Positions 4,200 through 47,976 of a stretch of 64,000 nucleotides of DNA are shown in pieces (within the stretch, counting starts at the first letter, position 1; the number at the start of each line of letters is the position of its first letter). Under the pieces are notes generated by a model that saw only the letters and a list, made by a program, of their open reading frames with translations, ran no database searches and was not told the origin of the DNA. The stretch is from positions 1,068 through 65,067 of the forward strand of contig CAYFPJ010000002.1 in assembly GCA_964344965.1 (NCBI GenBank), written 5' to 3'. The position numbers and the translations under genes were made by a program. Source of the stretch: an uncultured Gammaproteobacteria bacterium. Its GTDB lineage: Bacteria > Patescibacteriota > Patescibacteriia > Magasanikbacterales > UBA922.

Positions 4200-4348
4200 A
4201 ATAAAAGTAAATTTGGTTTAAGTAAGACTTCATCGGGCCATCCCCGCAGCAAGCTGCGGGGTATTGGCAGAAAATCTTATTTCAACCAATGTTAGTTTTC
4301 ACTTTTTCGATGCAAGCATCGAGGAATAAAACCGCTTAAAGATTAAAA
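4200..4348 (+). repeat. 149-nt structured interspersed repeat, copy A
   Basis: Near-identical to the copies at 18577, 20057, 41992 and 47828. Begins AATAAAAGTAAATTTGG and ends CCGCTTAAAGATTAAAA. Contains the hairpins CCCCGCAG-CAAG-CTGCGGGG and CGATG-CAAG-CATCG. Confidence 0.9.
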
Positions 4349-8208: not shown

Positions 8209-10164
8209 TCAATTATCAAACCTGACAATCTGATCCTGATCAATTTTCTTAGGCTTGTCCTCACTATCTGCTTTATTCTCTTTTTTAGATCCATTCCCAC
8301 CGCCAGAACCATCTTTGGCAGATCCACCGTTTTTCTTTTTCCTCTTTCTTTTCCTCTTTCGTTTCTTCTTAGGCTTGTCTTCCTTTAATTTTTCTTTCAC
8401 TTCTTCCTTACTTGAGTTTTTGTCTTCGTTATCTTTTATTTCTTCATCCTTTTCTTTTCTTGGCAAAGGTGAAAAGTCTTCTGAATCTTTTAGTTCTTTT
8501 TGCTCTTCATCAAAAAAATCAAGTAGATCCTGATCTTCTTCATCATTAGCTTTTTCTTCATCACTTCCAACCTCATCTTCTTGACCATCTTCTTCATCAA
8601 AAACTTCTGGCAAAGCCTCTCCATCTTTATCTTCGGGAAAATCAAACTTATCATCTGTCGCCAAGTCGTCTTCTTTAGCTTTTTCATTTTTAGGTAACAG
8701 ATCTTCAAGAGAGATATCTTCTTTATCAGATTCTAATTTCTTCTTATCAATCTCTATTTTTTCTTTGTCATCATCTTTTTTATTATCAGTATTTTTTTCT
8801 TTCTTTTTTTCTTTTTCTACTTCTCCACTATCACTACCAGCGATCTCCATCCCACTCCACCTAGTGATCTTCTCTTCGATGATATCACGCGATTTACCAT
8901 ATCTTTCCCGAGATACTCGGATCACTTTGTTAGCGCTCCCAGTAGACGAGCCAAGTGGTGGCATGCCAACCGCGCTGAACGGCTGGGAAGCAACTCCATT
9001 GATCATCAGTTTTAGAAAGATTTGATATTTTGGCAGATTAACAATATGCTCTTCGGTAAAAGTCGGAGCATATTCTTTTGCTAGAGCCTCCGCATCAGCT
9101 GCTCCCACTCGAAAAGTAAGAATACTTCCCACATTGCCAAATACAGCATCAGCTACAGTCTCATCTAGCTGAGCCACGTATTGGTGAGCCATGATCAGAC
9201 CAAGGCGATACTTACGAGCTTCAGACAAAATATTGGCAAAAGACTGAGTAGCAAAATTCTGAAATTCATCTACATAAAGAAAAAAATCATTACGCTCTTC
9301 CTCAGGAATATCTACTCTACTCATAGCGGCCAGTTGGATCTCGGTAATAAGCATTCCCCCGAGAAGACGACTATTGTCCTCCCCAATTCTACCTTTGGAA
9401 AGATTCATGATGAGGATCTTCTTCTGATCCATGATCTCTCGTATATTAATCGTTGATTTCACTTGAGCCACCATATTCCTGATCACACTGGCAGAAAGAA
9501 ACTGACCAATCTTGTTCTGAATTGGAGCGACCGCTTCTTTTTGGTACCTGGGTTCGTAGTTGGCAAATTCTGTAGTCCAAAATGATTTGACGACAGGGTC
9601 TTTCAATTGACGAATAACTTTTCGTCGATATTTCTTATCAGCAAGCATTCTGTTGATCCCAAGTAGTGTAGAGCCTTGAGAATCAAGTAGAGCAAGGAGT
9701 GTATTATTGAGAATGTATTCCATCCTCGCACTCCAGACATCTGGCCAAATCTTCTTGAAGACTCCCATCAGTCCAGAAGCAACAAGATGCTTTTGTTCTT
9801 CAGATTCTACTTCTAGAATATTGAAGCCAATTGGGAACTCTACATCAGCTGGATTGAAGTAAATAACATCATTGGTACGATGAGAAGGAATATAGTCGAT
9901 CAGCTTCTCAGCCATGTCTCCATGAGGATCTACCACTCCGACACCATGACCATTATATATGTCTTGGAGAACCATGTTCTCGAGCATAGTCGTCTTACCC
10001 ATCCCAGTCTTCCCTATCACATACATGTGTCTTCTGCGATCATCTGTCTTGATGCCAAACTTGCGCATCTGATTACGATAATTAGTCTGCGCAAAAAAAC
10101 AGACATGTTGTTTGTCTTCTGTAGATTTTTCTTGTCCCTTTATTTGGAGGTGGTGAGTGGGCAT
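8209..10164 (-). CDS. TraD/VirD4-like P-loop ATPase (T4SS coupling-protein-type AAA-binding domain) with ~230-aa K/E/D-rich low-complexity C-terminal tail
   Basis: Walker A YVIGKTGMGKTT and Walker B FFLYVDEFQNF; overall resembles the TrwB/TraD ATP-binding domain. The tail is poly-charged (KKKRKRKRKRKKK and D/E runs). No other T4SS genes are nearby. Confidence 0.5.
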   Translation of the reverse strand: MPTHHLQIKGQEKSTEDKQHVCFFAQTNYRNQMRKFGIKTDDRRRHMYVIGKTGMGKTTMLENMVLQDIYNGHGVGVVDPHGDMAEKLIDYIPSHRTNDVIYFNPADVEFPIGFNILEVESEEQKHLVASGLMGVFKKIWPDVWSARMEYILNNTLLALLDSQGSTLLGINRMLADKKYRRKVIRQLKDPVVKSFWTTEFANYEPRYQKEAVAPIQNKIGQFLSASVIRNMVAQVKSTINIREIMDQKKILIMNLSKGRIGEDNSRLLGGMLITEIQLAAMSRVDIPEEERNDFFLYVDEFQNFATQSFANILSEARKYRLGLIMAHQYVAQLDETVADAVFGNVGSILTFRVGAADAEALAKEYAPTFTEEHIVNLPKYQIFLKLMINGVASQPFSAVGMPPLGSSTGSANKVIRVSRERYGKSRDIIEEKITRWSGMEIAGSDSGEVEKEKKKEKNTDNKKDDDKEKIEIDKKKLESDKEDISLEDLLPKNEKAKEDDLATDDKFDFPEDKDGEALPEVFDEEDGQEDEVGSDEEKANDEEDQDLLDFFDEEQKELKDSEDFSPLPRKEKDEEIKDNEDKNSSKEEVKEKLKEDKPKKKRKRKRKRKKKNGGSAKDGSGGGNGSKKENKADSEDKPKKIDQDQIVRFDN

Positions 10165-10249: not shown

Positions 10250-10933
10250 TTATGGTTCAAATACTTCCTGTACTGGATATTTGCAAAATCCCTCATGGAT
10301 TCCGTCATTGCCAAATCTTTCCAACCAAGTAGGATTGCTGGAATATTTATACATAAAACTATTTTGCAACGAAGCAACTAACCTGTGTTTGAAAGGATTT
10401 TTCAAAATGTAATTGAAATGTTTCCAGAAGTCAGTAATGTTACGGATGCAGTAATCGTGATATTGGTACCATATTTTTCTGCCTGGTGTTTGGTCTAGTT
10501 TGTTTAACTCACGAGATGAGTCTTTGTGTAGCTTACGAACGAACTCAGTTAGAACATGTTTTTCTTGCTTTGGGACGAAATTCGCTGCGCTCATTTCATC
10601 ATTCCATTCTTTATAGGAAATATTCTCTCGTCTGATAGGAATGACAGATTGAGCCACAGCGAAATCTGTCCCAGTAGGCATATACTTTTTATTAATAGAT
10701 TGCGGCAGTGAAAAAAGTATATGGTAATGATTATCTAATAACACCCATGCATACATTCTGATACTAAACCTTTCAATCGATTGACGAAAAACATTTTGCC
10801 ACAATATCTTTTTATATTCTTTTTCAAAATACTTTTTCCCCTCCCAACACCGCGCCGTCAAAAAATAAGTATGTCCTCCATAAATATGATGCGGTCTATG
10901 TAAATTCCGATTTTGTGTTTGTGACAAGACCAT
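10250..10933 (-). CDS. IS200/IS605-type HUH tyrosine transposase, REP-associated (RAYT-like)
   Basis: HUH motif LLDNHYHILF and a C-terminal YILKNPFKHRLV...YKYSS block (cf. NPVKAGLV...W.YSS of RAYTs). No TnpB partner. Confidence 0.65.
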   Translation of the reverse strand: MVLSQTQNRNLHRPHHIYGGHTYFLTARCWEGKKYFEKEYKKILWQNVFRQSIERFSIRMYAWVLLDNHYHILFSLPQSINKKYMPTGTDFAVAQSVIPIRRENISYKEWNDEMSAANFVPKQEKHVLTEFVRKLHKDSSRELNKLDQTPGRKIWYQYHDYCIRNITDFWKHFNYILKNPFKHRLVASLQNSFMYKYSSNPTWLERFGNDGIHEGFCKYPVQEVFEP

Positions 10934-10954
10934 ACAAAAAATACAAAATTCGGA

Positions 10955-10985
10955 ATGACAAACGAAGCGCAGCGGAGTTTGTCAT
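10955..10985. repeat. perfect hairpin immediately upstream of the RAYT start
   Basis: ATGACAAAC-GAAGCGCAGCGGAG-GTTTGTCAT, a 9-bp stem. It overlaps the stop codon of the methyltransferase gene. Confidence 0.7.
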
Positions 10986-11671
10986 CCACGGATTACACTC
11001 ACAATATTATGCCCCTTCCTCAAATCCCTCCTCTTACCTTTCTTAGAAAAATACTGATCGACTATTTCAAACCCTGAACGAGTGAACAAATCTTCTAACT
11101 CTTCAATTTTAAATCCATAATAATACCTTTCGCCCAGCACTCCCCCGACAGGAGTGATCCAAGGAATGAGGAAATTGGCTCCGTGCTTTTTGAATTTTCC
11201 TTTGTTTACCACTTTGTTGACACTATCAGAAAAAAGATTCCAATTGGTCATCATGATGTGCCCCCCGGGTTTCAAAACTCGTTTCATTTCAGATAATGCT
11301 TTCAGTCTAGATTTTTCATCTGGCAAATGATGCAGTGTAGCGATACAAAAAATAAGATCAAACGTATTATCCTCCAATGGAAGATCCGTCATCTCTGCCA
11401 CTACAAATTTATTATTAGGAAAATCTTTCTTGCCCATCTCTATCTGTCCTTCACTTTGATCGACTCCCACATATTCCATGTCTTGAAATTTATCCAAAAG
11501 ATGGTATAATCGCCCTGCTCCACAACCAATATCAAGAACGCTATCACCATCTTTGATATATTTTTGAAAAGGGAGCATATCGTCCCAAACTTTTTGTCTA
11601 GTAGAAGCAAAAAGTGGCGCGATCTTATCGTAGATATCTTTGTTTTGTTTGATAATTTTTTTTGAATCCAT
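10982..11671 (-). CDS. class-I SAM-dependent methyltransferase, Trm9/ALKBH8-like (Methyltransf_11)
   Basis: SAM motif I VLDIGCGAGR, an acidic motif II and an LKPGG motif. Divergently paired with elp3. Confidence 0.6.
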   Translation of the reverse strand: MDSKKIIKQNKDIYDKIAPLFASTRQKVWDDMLPFQKYIKDGDSVLDIGCGAGRLYHLLDKFQDMEYVGVDQSEGQIEMGKKDFPNNKFVVAEMTDLPLEDNTFDLIFCIATLHHLPDEKSRLKALSEMKRVLKPGGHIMMTNWNLFSDSVNKVVNKGKFKKHGANFLIPWITPVGGVLGERYYYGFKIEELEDLFTRSGFEIVDQYFSKKGKRRDLRKGHNIVSVIRG

Positions 11672-11682
11672 AATTTCTGAAT

Positions 11683-11752
11683 GTAACTCAGGCCTTTAGG
11701 CCTGATAGAACCAATTTTGTTTGATGTAGTCAGGCCTAAAGGCCTGAGTTAC
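11683..11752. promoter_or_regulatory. perfect 23-bp inverted repeat (each arm itself a hairpin) in the divergent MTase/elp3 intergenic region, ending 2 nt before the elp3 ATG
   Basis: GTAACTCAGGCCTTTAGGCCTGA -24 nt- TCAGGCCTAAAGGCCTGAGTTAC. Confidence 0.6.
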
Positions 11753-11754
11753 AT

Positions 11755-13434
11755 ATGTGTATGTCTGAATTTGAACAAATAGTAAAATCTATCATTACCC
11801 AAAATCCTTCCACCAAAGGTGAGCTTGATGATATGAGGAGAAAAATCTGTGGTGAATTGCGTATCAATCAACCGTCTAACCGTAAACTTCTGCAAGCTTA
11901 CCAGAATTTGGTCAAAAAGAAAAGCATTGAGAAAAATCAAAAAATAGAAAGATTACTAAGGAAAGCCGATATTCGCACCCTCTCTGGTGTTGCTGTGATC
12001 ACCTCACTCATCAAACCATACAGCTGTCCAGGACAATGTGTCTATTGCCCAACTGAAGTAAGGATGCCCAAGAGCTATATCGCCACCGAGCCAGCCGCTG
12101 CTCGGGCTCTGTCTCTTGAGTTTAGTCCTTATGAACAAATGCAAAGGAGAATCAAGATGCTGGAACTCAATGGTCATCCAGTCGAAAAAATTGAATACAT
12201 TATCAAAGGTGGTACTTGGAATGCTTATCCGATCAAATATCAATACTGGTTCATCATGGAGTCATTCAAGGCTTGTAATAATTTGTCGCGGAGAAAAAAA
12301 ATAGCAGTGACAAATGAAGTGGATTGGAAAACTAGGCCACTAGCAGATGTGCAAGCAGAACTAGAAAAAGAGCAAGAATACAATGACAAAAAAGCTAGAT
12401 ACAAAATCATCGGTCTAACTCTCGAGACTAGGCCAGATGCCATCAGGCCGAAAACCATCATGCACATGCGTCTGCAAGGCTGTACCAGAATTGAACTTGG
12501 TCTCCAGGCCCCTGATGACAAAATTCTTGAGCTGATCAAACGAGGTCATACTGTCCAGCAGTTCAAAGATGCTATTCTCCTCCTCCGCCAAGCTGGCTTC
12601 AAAGTGGACCTCCACTTCATGCCCGATCTACCAGGGACCACAGCGAAGCATGATGTAGAAATGTATGAGACCATTTTCTCTGATCCTGGATTGAAGCCAG
12701 ATATGATCAAGATCTATCCCTGCACTGTGATTAAATCGGCTGAACTATATGGCTGGCTACAAGATGGTCGCTACAAGCCGTATAGTGGAAAGGAATTATT
12801 CTGGGCGTTATTGGAAATGAAAAAATTGACCCCACGATATTGTCGAATCTCTAGATTGATCCGTGACATCCCAAGTGATGTCATCGAGGCTGGTAATGCT
12901 GTCACAAATCTGCGTGAATATTTGGCGCAAGAAATGAAGAAGAATGGTTGGGTCTGTCAATGTCTTCGCTGCCGAGAAGTGGGACATCAAATAAAGAACA
13001 AAGAACAACTAACAACTAACAAAATTAAATTGTTTGTCGACGAATATGAAACTATTGGTGGGACGGAATATTTCTTGAGTTTTGAAGATGAAAAACGTCA
13101 GGTTGTTTTTGCTTTTTTGCGACTCCGACTGCCAGATAAGCAAAACAAAAATCAAAGCATTTCAAGCCTTTTAGGCCTTTCCAGCTTTTCAAGCCTTTCA
13201 TTCATTCGTGAACTCCACACCTACGGTCAACTCGTCAACCTGGGCAAGGAAAATAAAAAAGCTTCTCAACACAAAGGCATGGGTAAGAAGCTAGTAGAGA
13301 AGGCTGAAGAAATAGCCAAAAAAAATGGATTTGATAGTATGGCAGTTATTTCTGGAGTGGGAGTGAGAGGATACTATAGAAAATTAGGTTATAGAAAAAA
13401 AGGGACTTATATGACAAAAAATCTACTTGCTTGA
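11755..13434 (+). CDS. elp3: Elp3-family radical-SAM / GNAT tRNA-modification enzyme
   Basis: Radical-SAM CPGQCVYCP cluster, full-length similarity to Elp3, and a C-terminal GNAT domain that carries a low-complexity insert (SISSLLGLSSFSSLSF). Confidence 0.9.
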   Translation: MCMSEFEQIVKSIITQNPSTKGELDDMRRKICGELRINQPSNRKLLQAYQNLVKKKSIEKNQKIERLLRKADIRTLSGVAVITSLIKPYSCPGQCVYCPTEVRMPKSYIATEPAAARALSLEFSPYEQMQRRIKMLELNGHPVEKIEYIIKGGTWNAYPIKYQYWFIMESFKACNNLSRRKKIAVTNEVDWKTRPLADVQAELEKEQEYNDKKARYKIIGLTLETRPDAIRPKTIMHMRLQGCTRIELGLQAPDDKILELIKRGHTVQQFKDAILLLRQAGFKVDLHFMPDLPGTTAKHDVEMYETIFSDPGLKPDMIKIYPCTVIKSAELYGWLQDGRYKPYSGKELFWALLEMKKLTPRYCRISRLIRDIPSDVIEAGNAVTNLREYLAQEMKKNGWVCQCLRCREVGHQIKNKEQLTTNKIKLFVDEYETIGGTEYFLSFEDEKRQVVFAFLRLRLPDKQNKNQSISSLLGLSSFSSLSFIRELHTYGQLVNLGKENKKASQHKGMGKKLVEKAEEIAKKNGFDSMAVISGVGVRGYYRKLGYRKKGTYMTKNLLA

Positions 13435-16245: not shown

Positions 16246-16752
16246 TTAAATGCTATGTGTTACGTGTTTTGTGTCTCGTGAATACTTACATCCACAATAA
16301 TTTTGTCGATAAATTCCTTTTTCCTTCACCATCTTTCTTACCTTTTCTTGTCTACCACCCTTTTTCCAGTCTTCTTTTAAAAAACCAATATTATATTTTT
16401 CCGCCAACCTCCTACAAATCCCCCCGATAATTTCCATTTTTTTGTTTCGTCCGCTAGTGAGAGTGGTAGAGAAAATATCAAAATTATTTTCTTTAGCATA
16501 CTGAGCAGATTGATTGAGACGCAGATAAAAACACTTTGGACAACGAAGCCCTCCCTCTGGCTGATCTTCAAAACCTTTTATAGCCTCATCCCACCTATTC
16601 ACATCATAATCAGCATCGACCATCTTCACTCCCCACTCATCACAAATACGTACCACTTCTTTTTTTCTTTTCAGATATTCTTCTATTGGATGAATGTTGG
16701 GATTATAAAAATAAACCGTCAGATCATACTGATCTTTTAGGTCTCGTGCCAA
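16246..16752 (-). CDS. queH: epoxyqueuosine reductase QueH (DUF208), lacking the N-terminal CCAPC segment
   Basis: The protein aligns with T. maritima QueH from VTVFFFNPNIHP onward (ours TVYFYNPNIHP). The GGLRCPKC, DIFSTTL and QNYCGC motifs are present. The ORF begins at a TTG, and in-frame stop codons lie upstream. Confidence 0.7.
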   Translation of the reverse strand: MARDLKDQYDLTVYFYNPNIHPIEEYLKRKKEVVRICDEWGVKMVDADYDVNRWDEAIKGFEDQPEGGLRCPKCFYLRLNQSAQYAKENNFDIFSTTLTSGRNKKMEIIGGICRRLAEKYNIGFLKEDWKKGGRQEKVRKMVKEKGIYRQNYCGCKYSRDTKHVTHSI

Positions 16753-17972: not shown

Positions 17973-19408
17973 TTAATAAAAATAATTTCTATCTTCTAAC
18001 TCTTCCGGCAAATAATCCTGCTCCACCTCTCCCCCAAAATCTGGATTATACTTATAATCTTTACCATATCCAATTTCCTTCATAAAGTCAGTCGGAGCAT
18101 TCCGGAGATGTAAAGGTACACCAAGATGTGAAGTATTCTTAGCATCTCTGGCCGCCCGACCATAAGCTTTGTAAAGTAAGTTTGATTTGGTCGACTTAGC
18201 ACAGTATACCACAGCCTGAGCAAGGTGGACGGTGCACTCAGGCATGCCGATCTTGTGCACTGCATCATACGCTGCGTTAGCTTGAATCATTGCTTCACTA
18301 TTGGCCATGCCGATATCTTCACAAGCGAAGCGAAGCACTCGTCTAGCCACATATAGCGGATCTGCTCCCCCTTCAAGCATCCGAGCAAGCCAATACAGCG
18401 AAGCATCTGCATCACTTCCCCGCATAGATTTATGCAAAGCTGAGATCAGATTGTAAAACTCCTCACCTTTTTTATCAAAAACTAAGTGAGTACGCTGTAA
18501 TGCTTCTTTTATATCGTCAACTGACAAGATAACGCCACCAGATTCACCCCCCCCCTATGAGGGGGAGTCGATCCCGAATAAAAGTAAATTTGGTTTAAGT
18601 AAGACTTCATCGGGCCATCCCCGCAGCAAGCTGCGGGGTATTGGCAGAAAATCTTATTTCAACCAATGTTAGTTTTCACTTTTTCGATGCAAGCATCGAG
18701 GAATAGAACCGCTTTAGATTCAATCGGGACGGAGGGGGTCTCACTGGAAGTCTTCCCAACTACGGCAAGTTCAATACCATTCAAAGCTACTCTCCCATCT
18801 TCCCCACTCAAACTTGCCAAAAATTCGATAGTCTCATTATCAATCTCGACATTATATTTCCCCAATCCTCTATCCTCATCCTCGAGAGCTTGTCTTATAA
18901 GCAGGACAATATCCTCATCACTAAGACTTTTCAAAATAAAAACTCGTGAACGTGAGAGAAGTGGACGGATGATTTCAAAAGAAGGATTTTCCGTAGTGGC
19001 TCCGATGAGTGTAACCACTCCTCTCTCAACATAAGGCAGTAATGCATCTTGCTGGGCCTTATTCCAACGATGAATCTCATCAATAAAAAGCACTGTCTTC
19101 TTATTTTCATTCTGTAACAATTCTGAAGCTTCCTTGACTGCTTTCATCAAATCTCGCTTACCGCTCTCTACTCCTGACAAAGAGACAAACTCTGAATTAG
19201 TTTGCTCAGCTATAATATTGGCGAGACTAGTCTTTCCTACCCCAGGCGGACCCCAAAAAATGATCGAAGATAATTGATCTTGCTCGACCATGCGTCTGAG
19301 TAATTTGCCTTTCCCAACAATTTCTTCTTGACCTACAAATTCATCAAAATTGCGAGGACGCATGCGGTCTGGGAGTGGTCTATTATTCTGTGGCTTTTTT
19401 TCTTTCAT
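17973..19408 (-). pseudogene. rarA: rarA/mgsA (recombination factor AAA+ ATPase) split into two ORFs (18659..19408 and 17973..18527) by an inserted copy of the 149-nt repeat
   Basis: The N-terminal ORF has the Walker A GPPGVGKTSLA and ends with repeat-encoded LDACIEKVKTNIG*. The C-terminal ORF starts at a TTG with ...FDKKGEEFYNLISALHKSMRGS..., which continues the RarA alignment with no residues missing. Confidence 0.7.
18577..18724 (+). repeat. 149-nt structured repeat, copy B (inside rarA)
   Basis: Identical over ~130 nt to the other copies, with a diverged 3' end. It is preceded by an extra C9-TATGA-G6 hairpin. Confidence 0.9.
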
Positions 19409-19418
19409 GAAAATACCT

Positions 19419-20090
19419 TTATCCTTCAGATTTATCTCTCAAATATCCTTCTATAATGGTGTCAGCTTTGGAGAGATTTATTGCTACCAAAACACGAGGA
19501 GGAGTATTGGATTCTAAATAAATCTGCTCTTCCAATGGAATTTTGTGTCCTTCACCTCCCATCAATCTCTCTTGAGCTTCCTTCAAAATTCTAGACATCG
19601 TTATATAAGTTATACCAGCGTATCTAGAACGGATATATTTAGGGCGAACAAAATTTTTATTATTAATCAAAAGACCAAGAATCGTCATCCGTGCAAGCGC
19701 ATCTTCTGCTAAATCTGGACTAAGATATACCTCTCTCCTCAATCTTTCTTTTGTATTGAACTTTTGTGTAAAATGTCTTGAACCATAATTCCGCTGATCT
19801 CCCTCGGGCTTACTTTTGTTACTTTCTTTCATTCTTGATACATTCTCTGCAATTTTCCTTTTATCTAGACCTGTTTTTCTCTGTATGGTTGTCAGAGACA
19901 AGCCATATCTTCCGTCTTCTGGGGGGTATAATCTTCCATCCTCACCTTCCACAGCTCCCAAAAAAATCAAAAATTGTTTTCGATCTTCTTGAATACGACT
20001 CTCAATCATTTCCAAAACCTTAGGACTATATTTGGCATCATATCTTCTATGAGGAAAATAAAAGTAAATTTGGTTTAAGTAAGACTTCAT
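19419..20090 (-). CDS. hypothetical protein with a possible HTH; the annotated start (MKSYLNQIYFY) is encoded by the repeat, and the true start is probably near 20009
   Basis: The first 11 codons lie inside repeat copy C. The segment LSLTTIQRKTGLDKRKIAENVSRM is HTH-like. Confidence 0.35.
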   Translation of the reverse strand: MKSYLNQIYFYFPHRRYDAKYSPKVLEMIESRIQEDRKQFLIFLGAVEGEDGRLYPPEDGRYGLSLTTIQRKTGLDKRKIAENVSRMKESNKSKPEGDQRNYGSRHFTQKFNTKERLRREVYLSPDLAEDALARMTILGLLINNKNFVRPKYIRSRYAGITYITMSRILKEAQERLMGGEGHKIPLEEQIYLESNTPPRVLVAINLSKADTIIEGYLRDKSEG

Positions 20091-20206
20091 CGGGCCATCC
20101 CCGCAGCAAGCTGCGGGGTATTGGCAGAAAATCTTATTTCAACCAATGTTAGTTTTCACTTTTTCGATGCAAGCATCGAGGAATAAAACCGCTTAAAGAT
20201 TTAAAA
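20057..20206 (+). repeat. 149-nt structured repeat, copy C (150 nt)
   Basis: Matches the other copies. It supplies the last 19 codons (TFKSLSGFIPRCLHRKSEN*) of the upstream ORF. Confidence 0.9.
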
Positions 20207-21470: not shown

Positions 21471-21947
21471 ATGATAACATACAGTAATAATACCACAAAT
21501 GAGTGCTATTCAAGCAATATGAATCTCCCAACAAACACAATCATTGCCTCAGGTCCAGTAATTATTGAAGATGGTAGAGTCTTGCTTAATCGTGAAATAA
21601 AAAAAGATGGCAAGGAAAGTCCATATTTCATGTTCCCAGGCGGTACTGTAGAAGACTTTTCTTTTCCACTAGAAGACACTGCTAGACGAGAAACTCGAGA
21701 AGAGGTCGGGATTGAGATTGAAATTATCAAACCACTCCGCACACTCTTGGTTAATCGCCCTGATAAAGATAGTCTGGCGATTCTTGTTCATTATTTAGCT
21801 AGAAGAATCGGTGATATCAAACCAGGGCCAGAGACTGTGGAATGGGGCTGGTTTGATATTGATAATTTGCCGGAGAATGTGGCGGGAAACGTGAGGATTA
21901 TTATTAGTGATTATCTTAAGGAACTAGGCCGAGGATCACACAAATAG
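21471..21947 (+). CDS. NUDIX hydrolase (likely start at 21519, MNLPTN...)
   Basis: Nudix box GGTVEDFSFPLEDTARRETREEVGIEI. Confidence 0.85.
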   Translation: MITYSNNTTNECYSSNMNLPTNTIIASGPVIIEDGRVLLNREIKKDGKESPYFMFPGGTVEDFSFPLEDTARRETREEVGIEIEIIKPLRTLLVNRPDKDSLAILVHYLARRIGDIKPGPETVEWGWFDIDNLPENVAGNVRIIISDYLKELGRGSHK

Positions 21948-23761: not shown

Positions 23762-23893
23762 CTCTCTCGCAACCCACCACCTGTCCTCCTCCCTTAAAAA
23801 GGGAGGAGGGACGTACTAATAAGTTTGACCTATGCAGCACGTTCTCCCTCCCTTTCTAAGGGAGGGAGACAGAGGGTGGGTTGCGTGGTGAGA
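23762..23893. other. GC-rich multi-stem structured element in the convergent glyA/murG spacer
   Basis: Outer 10-bp stem GCAACCCACC/GGTGGGTTGC encloses two hairpins, CCTCCTCCC-TTAAAAA-GGGAGGAGG and CTCCCTCCC-TTTCTAA-GGGAGGGAG. Confidence 0.6.
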
Positions 23894-41991: not shown

Positions 41992-42140
41992 AATAAAAGT
42001 AAATTTGGTTTAAGTAAGACTTCATCGGGCCATCCCCGCAGCAAGCTGCGGGGTATTGGCAGAAAATCTTATTTCAACCAATGTTAGTTTTCACTTTTTC
42101 GATGCAAGCATCGAGGAATAAAACCGCTTAAAGATTAAAA
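41992..42140 (+). repeat. 149-nt structured repeat, copy D
   Basis: Full-length match to the other copies; lies between convergent genes. Confidence 0.9.
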
Positions 42141-47259: not shown

Positions 47260-47849
47260 CACAAATTGCTACTTTCATGGATACTGATGCCACTGAACCA
47301 AGTGAGGGTAATATCAGAGAAGGATGGACCTCTGACGCACATTTGCGCAAATTAGAAAGTGTAGTAATGCACGAAAACCACCAAAACCAGACTTTTGCTG
47401 ATATTGCAGAAAATGCTGGAGAAAGAAGTAAAAGCCCTGCTGTAAAAATTCTTCTGAAAATAGGCGGACAAATTAACGGATTGAGGCGCATGACCGATAA
47501 AGAACCGATCAAAGACGAAGTTGACAAACTAATCAGAGAGGCCGCAGAGGAAATTGATCAGCTGGAGGATGGAACTAAAAAAGAACGCCTAGACTCACTG
47601 TTGGATTATAATGCTGGTGAGTGGAATAGAGTTATGGGAAATTATGACCTGGCTGCTGAATTGAAAAAACGCTCTGCAACCAAAGCCGAGACAAGCGGGG
47701 ATAGAGTAGGTGCCTCTATCGGGTATGTCGGTGAAAGTGTTCAGAAAGTGAATGAAGCTTTGGTAAATGGTGACCAAACAGAAATAGCTGCGAATCTAGA
47801 AGAAATGATTAGTCGTTCTGATCATCTAATAAAAGTAAATTTGGTTTAA
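47220..47849 (+). CDS. hypothetical protein (TTG start in the track; the last 6 codons, IKVNLV*, come from the repeat)
   Basis: ORF with higher GC than its neighbours; no motif. Confidence 0.35.
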   Translation: MVIGEIPNHEKLATQIATFMDTDATEPSEGNIREGWTSDAHLRKLESVVMHENHQNQTFADIAENAGERSKSPAVKILLKIGGQINGLRRMTDKEPIKDEVDKLIREAAEEIDQLEDGTKKERLDSLLDYNAGEWNRVMGNYDLAAELKKRSATKAETSGDRVGASIGYVGESVQKVNEALVNGDQTEIAANLEEMISRSDHLIKVNLV

Positions 47850-47976
47850 GTAAGACTTCATCGGGCCATCCCCGCAGCAAGCTGCGGGGTATTGGCAGAA
47901 AATCTTATTTCAACCAATGTTAGTTTTCACTTTTTCGATGCAAGCATCGAGGAATAAAACCGCTTAAAGATTAAAA
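47828..47976 (+). repeat. 149-nt structured repeat, copy E
   Basis: Full-length match; separates two GC-richer ORFs. Confidence 0.9.

Follow-up and report, generated by a model that had tools for sequence, protein, structure and literature searches.

Gene organization of the locus

A divergent gene pair and the inverted repeat between its start codons were analysed in a 64-kb stretch of contig CAYFPJ010000002.1 (64,000 nucleotides (nt); hereafter, the window). One gene encodes Elp3 and the other a Trm9-like methyltransferase, and together they probably form a tRNA modification couple. The repeat is best explained as a doublet of repetitive extragenic palindromes (REPs) that was inserted separately in front of elp3. 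We give this combined reading a probability of about 0.75. An earlier description of the same DNA, made from its letters without database searches (the original prediction), had proposed the same couple and had taken the repeat to be an operator shared by the two genes.

The open reading frame (ORF) for the methyltransferase occupies 10982-11671 on the minus strand and encodes a class I S-adenosylmethionine (SAM)-dependent enzyme of 229 amino acids (aa). The elp3 ORF occupies 11755-13434 on the plus strand and encodes 559 aa, with an alternative start at 11761. These are the two ORFs that the original prediction described as a divergent Methyltransf_11/Elp3 pair, and 83 nt separate them. This interval begins with a native spacer of 9 nt, AATTTCTGA (11672-11680), which has the same length as that in the closest relative, locus L001. 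The remainder is the 74-nt REP doublet (11681-11754), composed of a left REP (11681-11705), a spacer (11706-11729) and a right REP (11730-11754), with the short sequence tags of the two REPs pointing outward. Both ORFs are intact despite this element. Downstream of the methyltransferase lies a gene whose 227-aa product resembles REP-associated tyrosine transposases (RAYTs; 10250-10933, minus strand). A hairpin of the form GGAATGACAAAC-N13-GTTTGTCATCC (10952-10987) is located between the methyltransferase stop and the RAYT start. No strand is assigned to the native spacer, the doublet or this hairpin.

Elp3

In an NCBIfam search, the window Elp3 scores 544.3 bits against the family model TIGR01211 (cutoff 350), with residues 9-557 covered. 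Over its length it also matches the solved Elp3 structures of M. infernus (MinElp3; PDB 6ia8, 9e-109) and D. mccartyi (DmcElp3; 5l7j, 1e-103). The radical-SAM motif CxxxCxxC is formed by C91/C95/C98. The zinc cysteines, which have been described for prokaryotic Elp3 (PMC6367351), are C401/C403/C406. The acetyl-CoA motif of the GNAT/KAT domain (QHxGxG) is found as QHKGMG at residue 505. All three motifs align with MinElp3. By these family and motif matches, the protein is a genuine member of the Elp3 family, and it is predicted to form 5-carboxymethyluridine at position 34 of tRNA (cm5U34). Alignment with the N-termini of relatives suggests that translation of elp3 may in fact begin at its second ATG (11761; MSEFEQIV...), 6 nt past the repeat.

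Judging from the database matches, Elp3 is no rarity in this lineage. The best 120 matches of the window protein are all at least 61% identical to it, the named sources among them are Magasanikbacteria or Patescibacteria, and NCBI routinely labels these homologs Elp3. The statement in the original prediction that bacterial Elp3 homologs are rare was therefore overstated. Passages in reviews describe bacterial Elp3 as rare or confined to Dehalococcoides, and a passage in one 2026 paper speaks of 'numerous bacteria' with Elp3. In the searchable Elongator literature, we did not find Elp3 tied to Patescibacteria or the candidate phyla radiation as a bacterial enzyme.

Like the enzyme of Dehalococcoides mccartyi, the window protein is a stand-alone bacterial Elp3. 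The two differ at the N-terminus, which is short in DmcElp3; from residue 45 or so, the window protein can be aligned with the archaeal MinElp3, whose N-terminus is longer. The window Elp3 is additionally paired with a Trm9-like gene. Within elp3, three imperfect 16-nt direct repeats (AGCATTTCAAGCCTTT; 13156-13198) encode a serine/leucine-rich stretch, which directly precedes the conserved SFIRELH segment in the C-terminal GNAT region. The counterpart of this stretch in L001 is much longer and has a different sequence.

The Trm9-like methyltransferase

Pfam Methyltransf_11 matches the methyltransferase at 1e-25, and the protein has the class I fold and keeps both SAM motif I and the acidic residue that binds the ribose. 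In the NCBIfam search, none of the models reaches its cutoff, and UbiE, BioC and other small-molecule methyltransferases stay far below theirs. In a single-sequence search of the PDB, Trm9 of Y. lipolytica (5cm2_Z) is the sole high-ranking match across nearly the whole protein. This match takes in the N-terminal '...STRxxxW' and C-terminal 'PW ... RYY' segments. When a profile of 55 family members is used, the same structure ranks first, with 84.6 bits over residues 22-214.

Eight residues of yeast Trm9 (R29, D72, H116, W145, W168, R241, Y243 and N271) are critical, since their alanine mutants abolish or strongly reduce activity (PMC4678810). The first seven align with R25, D71, H115, W144, W171, R182 and Y184 of the window protein. 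Among the 55 family members, each of these is either invariant or conserved in at least 90%. The counterpart of H116 lies in the doublet H114/H115. N222, which is invariant in the family, is probably the equivalent of N271, by its position near the C-terminus only. With Trm9 as the top PDB match of the family profile and seven of the eight essential residues aligned, the resemblance to Trm9 noted in the original prediction holds. The Joint Genome Institute (JGI) also annotates two homologs of the methyltransferase as TRM9. The AlphaFold model of the window protein has a pLDDT confidence score of 94.7, and its fold comparison does not discriminate among methyltransferase types. By its active-site residues and gene context, and not by fold or phylogeny, we class the enzyme as Trm9-like rather than UbiE/BioC-like.

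The methyltransferase could instead act on another substrate, such as a small molecule, a protein or another tRNA position, and share some other role with Elp3. The generic nature of the library matches (Methyltransf_11, with UbiE/BioC-like models below cutoff) would fit this, as would the inability of fold searches to discriminate, the NUDIX domains fused to some homologs and the four distant relatives without Elp3 in their flanks. A further point that counts against a Trm9 function concerns Trm112 (PF03966), which was not found at E <= 0.01 among the 52 small ORFs of the 64-kb neighbourhood. Against this alternative stand the conservation of Trm9-specific residues outside the SAM-binding core, the rank of Trm9 as the best full-length solved relative and the tight head-to-head linkage to Elp3 across deep divergence. 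We regard a role other than that of Trm9 as quite improbable.

In relatives, a conserved gene close to the pair encodes a 54-aa zinc-ribbon protein, which was weighed as a candidate for Trm112. It was rejected, as Pfam assigns it to the LysW family of zinc ribbons; the window itself lacks the gene. Many of the Trm9-like homologs are about 375 aa long and fused to a NUDIX domain (P0054, P0056, P0058-P0061, P0064, P0065, P0069, P0070 and others). NUDIX genes that stand alone are likewise found repeatedly in the vicinity of the pair, at 21471-21947 in the window and in L001 and L205-L208.

A predicted route to mcm5U

In the reading that we favour, a tRNA modification couple, the two enzymes would act in succession on U34. 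Elp3 would add a carboxymethyl group to C5 of the base through its radical-SAM and acetyl-CoA (KAT) domains, yielding cm5U. The Trm9-like methyltransferase would then esterify the carboxylate of cm5U with SAM to give 5-methoxycarbonylmethyluridine (mcm5U), the predicted product of the window pair. The proposal of such a couple in the original prediction is borne out by an Elp3 above its family cutoff, by Trm9-like residues and by conserved pairing, with the mcm5U product itself deduced from homology.

Several features are shared with the Elp3/Trm9(-Trm112) pathway of eukaryotes and archaea. The window Elp3 is full-length and combines an extended N-terminus with the radical-SAM, zinc and KAT motifs; the methyltransferase has the active-site residues of Trm9. 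The genes are also physically clustered, as are Elp3 and Trm9 in the archaeon Sulfolobus solfataricus, where this clustering was noted earlier (PMC6144793). The differences lie in the bacterial host, a member of the candidate phyla radiation in which no further Elongator subunits are expected, and in the head-to-head order of the genes, with start codons that abut or overlap in many loci. In addition, the 64-kb neighbourhood of the pair yielded no Trm112, and the mcm5U product of the pair is a prediction.

Conservation of the divergent pairing

The divergent pairing of the two genes is strongly conserved. It occurs in about 16 distinct related loci, among which the identity of the methyltransferase falls to 33%. 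The closest named homologs of both proteins belong to Candidatus Magasanikbacteria, a group of the candidate phyla radiation to which we assign the window genome. In L001, the methyltransferase is 75% and Elp3 70% identical to the window proteins, the pair is divergent in the same way, and the wider order MgsA-QueH-EamA-hypothetical-Elp3/methyltransferase is syntenic with the window. Six more loci of Magasanikbacteria, fetched through homologs of the methyltransferase or of the RAYT, also have the pair. A metagenome scan with the methyltransferase profile yielded 13 clear family members with 30-44% identity. Elp3 is immediately upstream and divergent in nine of these (L125-L133), and the other four (L134-L137) have no Elp3 in their flanks. 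The pairing is thus kept in every close relative inspected and in most of the distant ones. Neither of the outcomes that would have spoken against the couple in the original prediction, an affinity to UbiE/BioC enzymes and an unconserved pairing, is what these data show. For 26 pairs of methyltransferase and Elp3 homologs, the longest contig is identical in size, and several of these contigs are only 3.4-7.4 kb long. Magasanikbacteria and other uncultured lineages keep the pair head to head, with starts that abut or overlap in many loci.

Another modifier of tRNA position 34 is encoded three genes from elp3. This is QueH, an epoxyqueuosine reductase (16246-16752, minus strand), which is syntenic in L001.

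The inverted repeat is an insertion

The repeat between the two genes was originally described as a perfect 23-bp inverted repeat. The 23-mer GTAACTCAGGCCTTTAGGCCTGA does occur in exactly two inverted copies in the window, at 11683-11705 (plus strand) and 11730-11752 (minus strand), and no copies are expected from 100 shuffles. The perfect complementarity reaches further, with arms of 25 nt each (11681-11705 and 11730-11754), so that the unit comprises 25 + 24 + 25 = 74 nt. The spacer of 24 nt given for the copies is the same between the longer arms. The right copy was said to end 2 nt before the elp3 ATG, which is true of the 23-mer, ending at 11752; since the arms extend to 25 nt, the right arm reaches 11754 and adjoins the ATG at 11755. 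Each arm can fold by itself, as originally proposed, into a hairpin with a 7-bp stem and a 4-nt loop (TCAGGCC-TTTA/TAAA-GGCCTGA). Folded as a whole, the unit reaches -29 kcal/mol (z -9.6) when modelled as DNA and -50 kcal/mol (z -7.8) when modelled as RNA, far below shuffled sequence in both cases. An identical doublet is found in three further assemblies (L004-L006) from two sequencing runs, so it is no assembly artefact. An Rfam scan of the window returned two tRNAs only at gathering thresholds. Matches of the repeat to miRNA-precursor families fell below threshold and were set aside, since they merely reflect a perfect hairpin.

The intergenic region was compared among relatives. The start codons of the two genes overlap as CATG in L128, L131 and L132 (-2 nt) and abut as CATATG in L126 and L133 (0 nt). 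They are separated by 2 nt in L207, by 9 nt in L001 (CAT-AATAGCATC-ATG, where AATAGCATC is the spacer), by 11 nt in L209 and L213 and by 14 nt in L125. Larger distances are seen in L129 (about 30 nt), L210/L212 (about 63 nt), L208 (96 nt), L127 (about 110 nt) and L205 (118 nt). The window reads CAT-AATTTCTGA-(74-nt palindrome)-ATG, and removal of the 74 nt leaves the 9-nt spacing of L001. The difference between 9 nt in L001 and 9 + 74 nt in the window identifies the repeat as an insertion, and it is absent from all of the orthologous loci examined (L001, L125-L133 and L205-L213). On this alignment of loci, the element represents an insertion polymorphism at an orthologous site, and its perfect arms suggest that the insertion is recent.

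These comparisons bear directly on the operator, that is, on a site at which a dimeric or tetrameric regulator would control both divergent promoters. A perfect palindrome that lies centrally between divergent starts and is far beyond chance is what such a site could look like. The repeat is nevertheless missing from orthologous loci in which the pair itself is conserved down to 33% identity. The native spacer is too short for an operator, and the many relatives whose start codons lie within -2 to 14 nt of each other have no intergenic room for one. The identical 23-25-mer, as described below, also occurs in unrelated contexts and arrays in other phyla, and the sole strong promoter-like site at the locus lies outside the repeat, within the methyltransferase ORF. 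To our knowledge, a nested double hairpin of 74 nt is an atypical architecture for an operator. Shared control through this repeat is therefore very improbable, and the comparative data largely refute the operator of the original prediction: the repeat is absent from orthologous loci, equals the extra 74 nt and is a REP hairpin of many genomes.

A family of tagged REP hairpins

Other genomes contain the 18-nt hairpin of the repeat, TCAGGCCTTTAGGCCTGA, in no fewer than 118 stretches, with 130 copies counted and often several per genome. The hosts include Acidobacteriota, a deltaproteobacterial bin, Clostridia, Desantisbacteria, Woesearchaeota and two lineages of the candidate phyla radiation, Falkowbacteria and Paceibacter. 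The hairpin is preceded by GTAGC in 85 of the 130 copies and by GTAAC in nine (94 of 130 together), at the same position as the GTAAC of the window. The identical 23-25-mer also occurs in unrelated contexts and arrays in other phyla. Stem variants with compensatory changes exist (TCAGGGC/GCCCTGA, TCAAACC/GGTTTGA and GCAGGGC/GCCCTGC), and related hairpins also form tandem arrays and doublets in Desantisbacteria, Falkowbacteria and others. In L036, a low-GC bin, a doublet of about 75 nt has the same ATGTAAC...GTTACAT ends, an unrelated spacer of 25 nt and a covarying left stem. These copies place the hairpin in a tagged family that is multi-copy elsewhere.

Tandem arrays of GTAAC/GTAGC-tagged hairpins are present at 2254-2379 and 4280-4460 of L040 (Desantisbacteria) and in L054 and L055 (deltaproteobacterial bin). 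These arrays have periods of 25, 37 and 60 nt and alternating stem variants, and they constitute large REP clusters with the hairpin sequence of the window.

The insertion, the tag-plus-hairpin unit in unrelated genomes, the doublet of L036 and a nearby RAYT gene together lead us to read the element as a REP doublet (REPIN). REPINs are non-autonomous and, in a passage of PMC3337134, are thought to be mobilised by RAYT transposases. A passage of PMC3733652 describes GTAG-tagged REP 'HH dimers' with spacers of 20-100 bp. The window element resembles the GTAG-tagged REP dimers and REPINs of Bertels & Rainey (2011), Di Nocera et al. (2013) and Ton-Hoang et al. (2012) in four respects. Its hairpin is short, GC-rich and tagged with GTA(G/A) at the 5' end; its two copies are inverted, with tags outward and a spacer within the range of 20-100 bp; a vertically inherited RAYT gene is near it; and it shows presence/absence polymorphism at an orthologous site. 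It would thus consist of two GTAA(C)-tagged REP hairpins around a 24-nt spacer, forming one REPIN that was inserted into the native 9-nt spacer directly before the elp3 start codon. Based on these comparisons of sequence, the 74-nt repeat is a REP/REPIN-type insertion and not an ancestral operator.

Several observations weigh against this assignment or set the element apart from known REPINs. The tag in the window is GTAA(C), rather than the canonical GTAG. The 64-kb window contains just this one doublet, with no further GTAAC/TCAGGCC doublets, so that multi-copy status in this genome is not established. REPs are usually found downstream of genes and not between divergent starts, according to a passage of PMC3733652, whereas the window element lies between two divergent start codons. 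The RAYT-like protein scores 78.1 bits against the NCBIfam model REP_Tyr_transpos, just under its cutoff of 80. Its gene is 748 nt from the doublet, with the methyltransferase gene between them, so this REP does not directly flank the RAYT on both sides. A tblastn search with the RAYT in 8-kb pieces of the 118 REP-bearing loci found no RAYT. The window host also differs from the known hosts in being a small genome of the candidate phyla radiation. The scan of genome contigs for the 18-nt hairpin recovered copies neither from the window's own genome nor from other Magasanikbacteria, and no copy of the GTAAC/TCAGGCC REP was found in the loci of RAYT-bearing relatives.

The RAYT-like gene

The RAYT-like protein exceeds the cutoff of Pfam Y1_Tnp (24.2 bits; cutoff 23), and its catalytic motifs are intact, with HUH (as HYH) at residue 69 and NYILKNP with the tyrosine at residue 175. 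A RAYT gene is also directly downstream of the methyltransferase in L206, L208, L209 and L210-L213, which represent five other lineages with 47-55% identity. This fixed position in five lineages fits the vertical, single-copy inheritance that is reported for RAYTs in a passage on RAREFAN. A REPIN would be moved as a single-stranded hairpin by a RAYT-type HUH/Y1 transposase, one of which is encoded 0.75 kb away, and this particular RAYT may have mobilised the doublet.

The window RAYT has an insert of about 44 aa relative to the RAYT profile. Hairpin-like sequence lies inside the RAYT ORF both in the window (10574-10605) and in L206 (4945-4987), and the former is a partial inverted copy of the hairpin at 10952-10987. 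Similar hairpins, GGAATGGCGAAC-GTAA-GTTCGCC, precede the RAYT gene in L208 and L209. A PALP-domain gene (PF00291) is located just downstream of the methyltransferase or the RAYT in relatives without a RAYT and in most of those with one. In the window, synteny breaks after the RAYT, where the next gene (8209-10164) encodes a TrwB/TraD-like coupling protein whose tail is long and charged.

A promoter-like site inside the methyltransferase ORF

Another sequence that may matter for expression of the pair lies within the methyltransferase ORF. TTGAAA-16-(TG)TATAAT at 11483-11510 on the plus strand, directed towards elp3, agrees with the promoter consensus at 11 of 12 positions and has an extended -10 element. 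The same site is present at the identical codon position in L001 and L213. The sequence is kept in L205, L208, L209 and L210 too, giving seven loci with the window included. The site overlaps codons for R-L-Y ... K-F-Q, antisense to the methyltransferase. Synonymous codons are fixed there (TTA for Leu, TTT CAA for Phe-Gln), and more distant relatives use others. For the opposite direction, no conserved promoter-like site was found inside elp3. The best candidate for the methyltransferase in the window, at 11828-11856, agrees at 9 of 12 positions, and the first 290 nt or so of L001 elp3 contain no such site at the scan threshold.

By its consensus match and conservation, the site may function as a promoter, from which elp3 would be transcribed from within the methyltransferase gene. 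In the sub-clade of the window, this promoter would lie some 165-190 nt into the methyltransferase ORF. The predicted 5' untranslated region (UTR) of elp3 would be about 164 nt long in L001 and about 238 nt in the window, and the 5' ends of both transcripts would overlap in antisense. Shared control of the pair would then more likely come from overlapping divergent transcription. Since the promoter-like site is upstream of the element, the doublet would sit in the elp3 5' UTR and end at the start codon, where it would form a hairpin of -50 kcal/mol if the embedded promoter is real.

This position raises the question of whether a mobile insertion has been co-opted, with a 5' UTR hairpin or a DNA cruciform that tunes translation, mRNA stability or transcriptional interference. 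A predicted RNA hairpin of this strength at the elp3 start codon would suit such a role, as would the conserved upstream site that would place the element in the 5' UTR. Both ORFs are still intact, and REPs are reported to act as RNA elements in a passage of PMC3733652. The element is not conserved at the locus, hence gives no sign of selection, and its perfect arms point to a young insertion. We consider co-option unlikely, and favour a REP doublet that is separate from the modification couple.

Possible significance

Reviews treat Elongator-type modification as essentially archaeal and eukaryotic, with Dehalococcoides as the lone bacterial example. Should the window pair produce mcm5U34, decoding in a large group of ultra-small bacteria would involve an Elongator-type wobble modification. 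Such a bacterial route to 5-substituted uridines of the xm5U type is absent from the searchable Elongator literature. Going one step further, Magasanikbacteria and other uncultured bacteria might make mcm5U34 with a stand-alone Elp3 and a Trm112-independent relative of Trm9, with the two genes coupled by antisense or overlapping transcription from an elp3 promoter inside the methyltransferase ORF. To this fuller proposal we give somewhat less than an even chance. The most interesting remainder of the original prediction is the conserved bacterial Elp3/Trm9-like module with its unusually tight head-to-head arrangement, for which bacterial mcm5U is directly testable. As a compact two-gene unit, possibly independent of Trm112, it would also be convenient for reconstituting the chemistry from cm5U to mcm5U.

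The locus also offers a caution, as a perfect, operator-like palindrome between divergent genes proved on comparison with relatives to be a REP/REPIN insertion. With it, genomes of the candidate phyla radiation would join the hosts of RAYT/REP systems.

Other repeats in the window

A dispersed repeat of about 144 nt (AATAAAAGTAAATTTGG...CCCCGCAGCAAGCTGCGGGG...CCGCTTAAAGATT) occurs in five near-identical copies, each with two hairpins. All are on the plus strand, at about 4200-4343, 18577-18720, 20057-20200, 41992-42135 and 47828-47971. The repeat has no match in Rfam and has the appearance of either a miniature mobile element that is still active or a small RNA present in several copies. One copy is carried by a 188-nt insertion (18534-18721) that splits the mgsA/rarA ortholog (17973-19408, minus strand). 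Residues 12-241 of L001 MgsA map to 19408-18722 and residues 240-424 to 18533-17979, and the Pfam halves are in separate ORFs.

A second family of hairpin doublets is present at 542-691, 23768-23885 and 1737-1759. Its stems are polypyrimidine/polypurine, for example TCTCTCTCC-TTTT-AGGAGAGAGA, and are flanked by ACGT(C/T)-like and CAGRGG motifs. This family resembles CGTC-tagged REP dimers, and similar hairpins are also found in the relatives L125 and L205.

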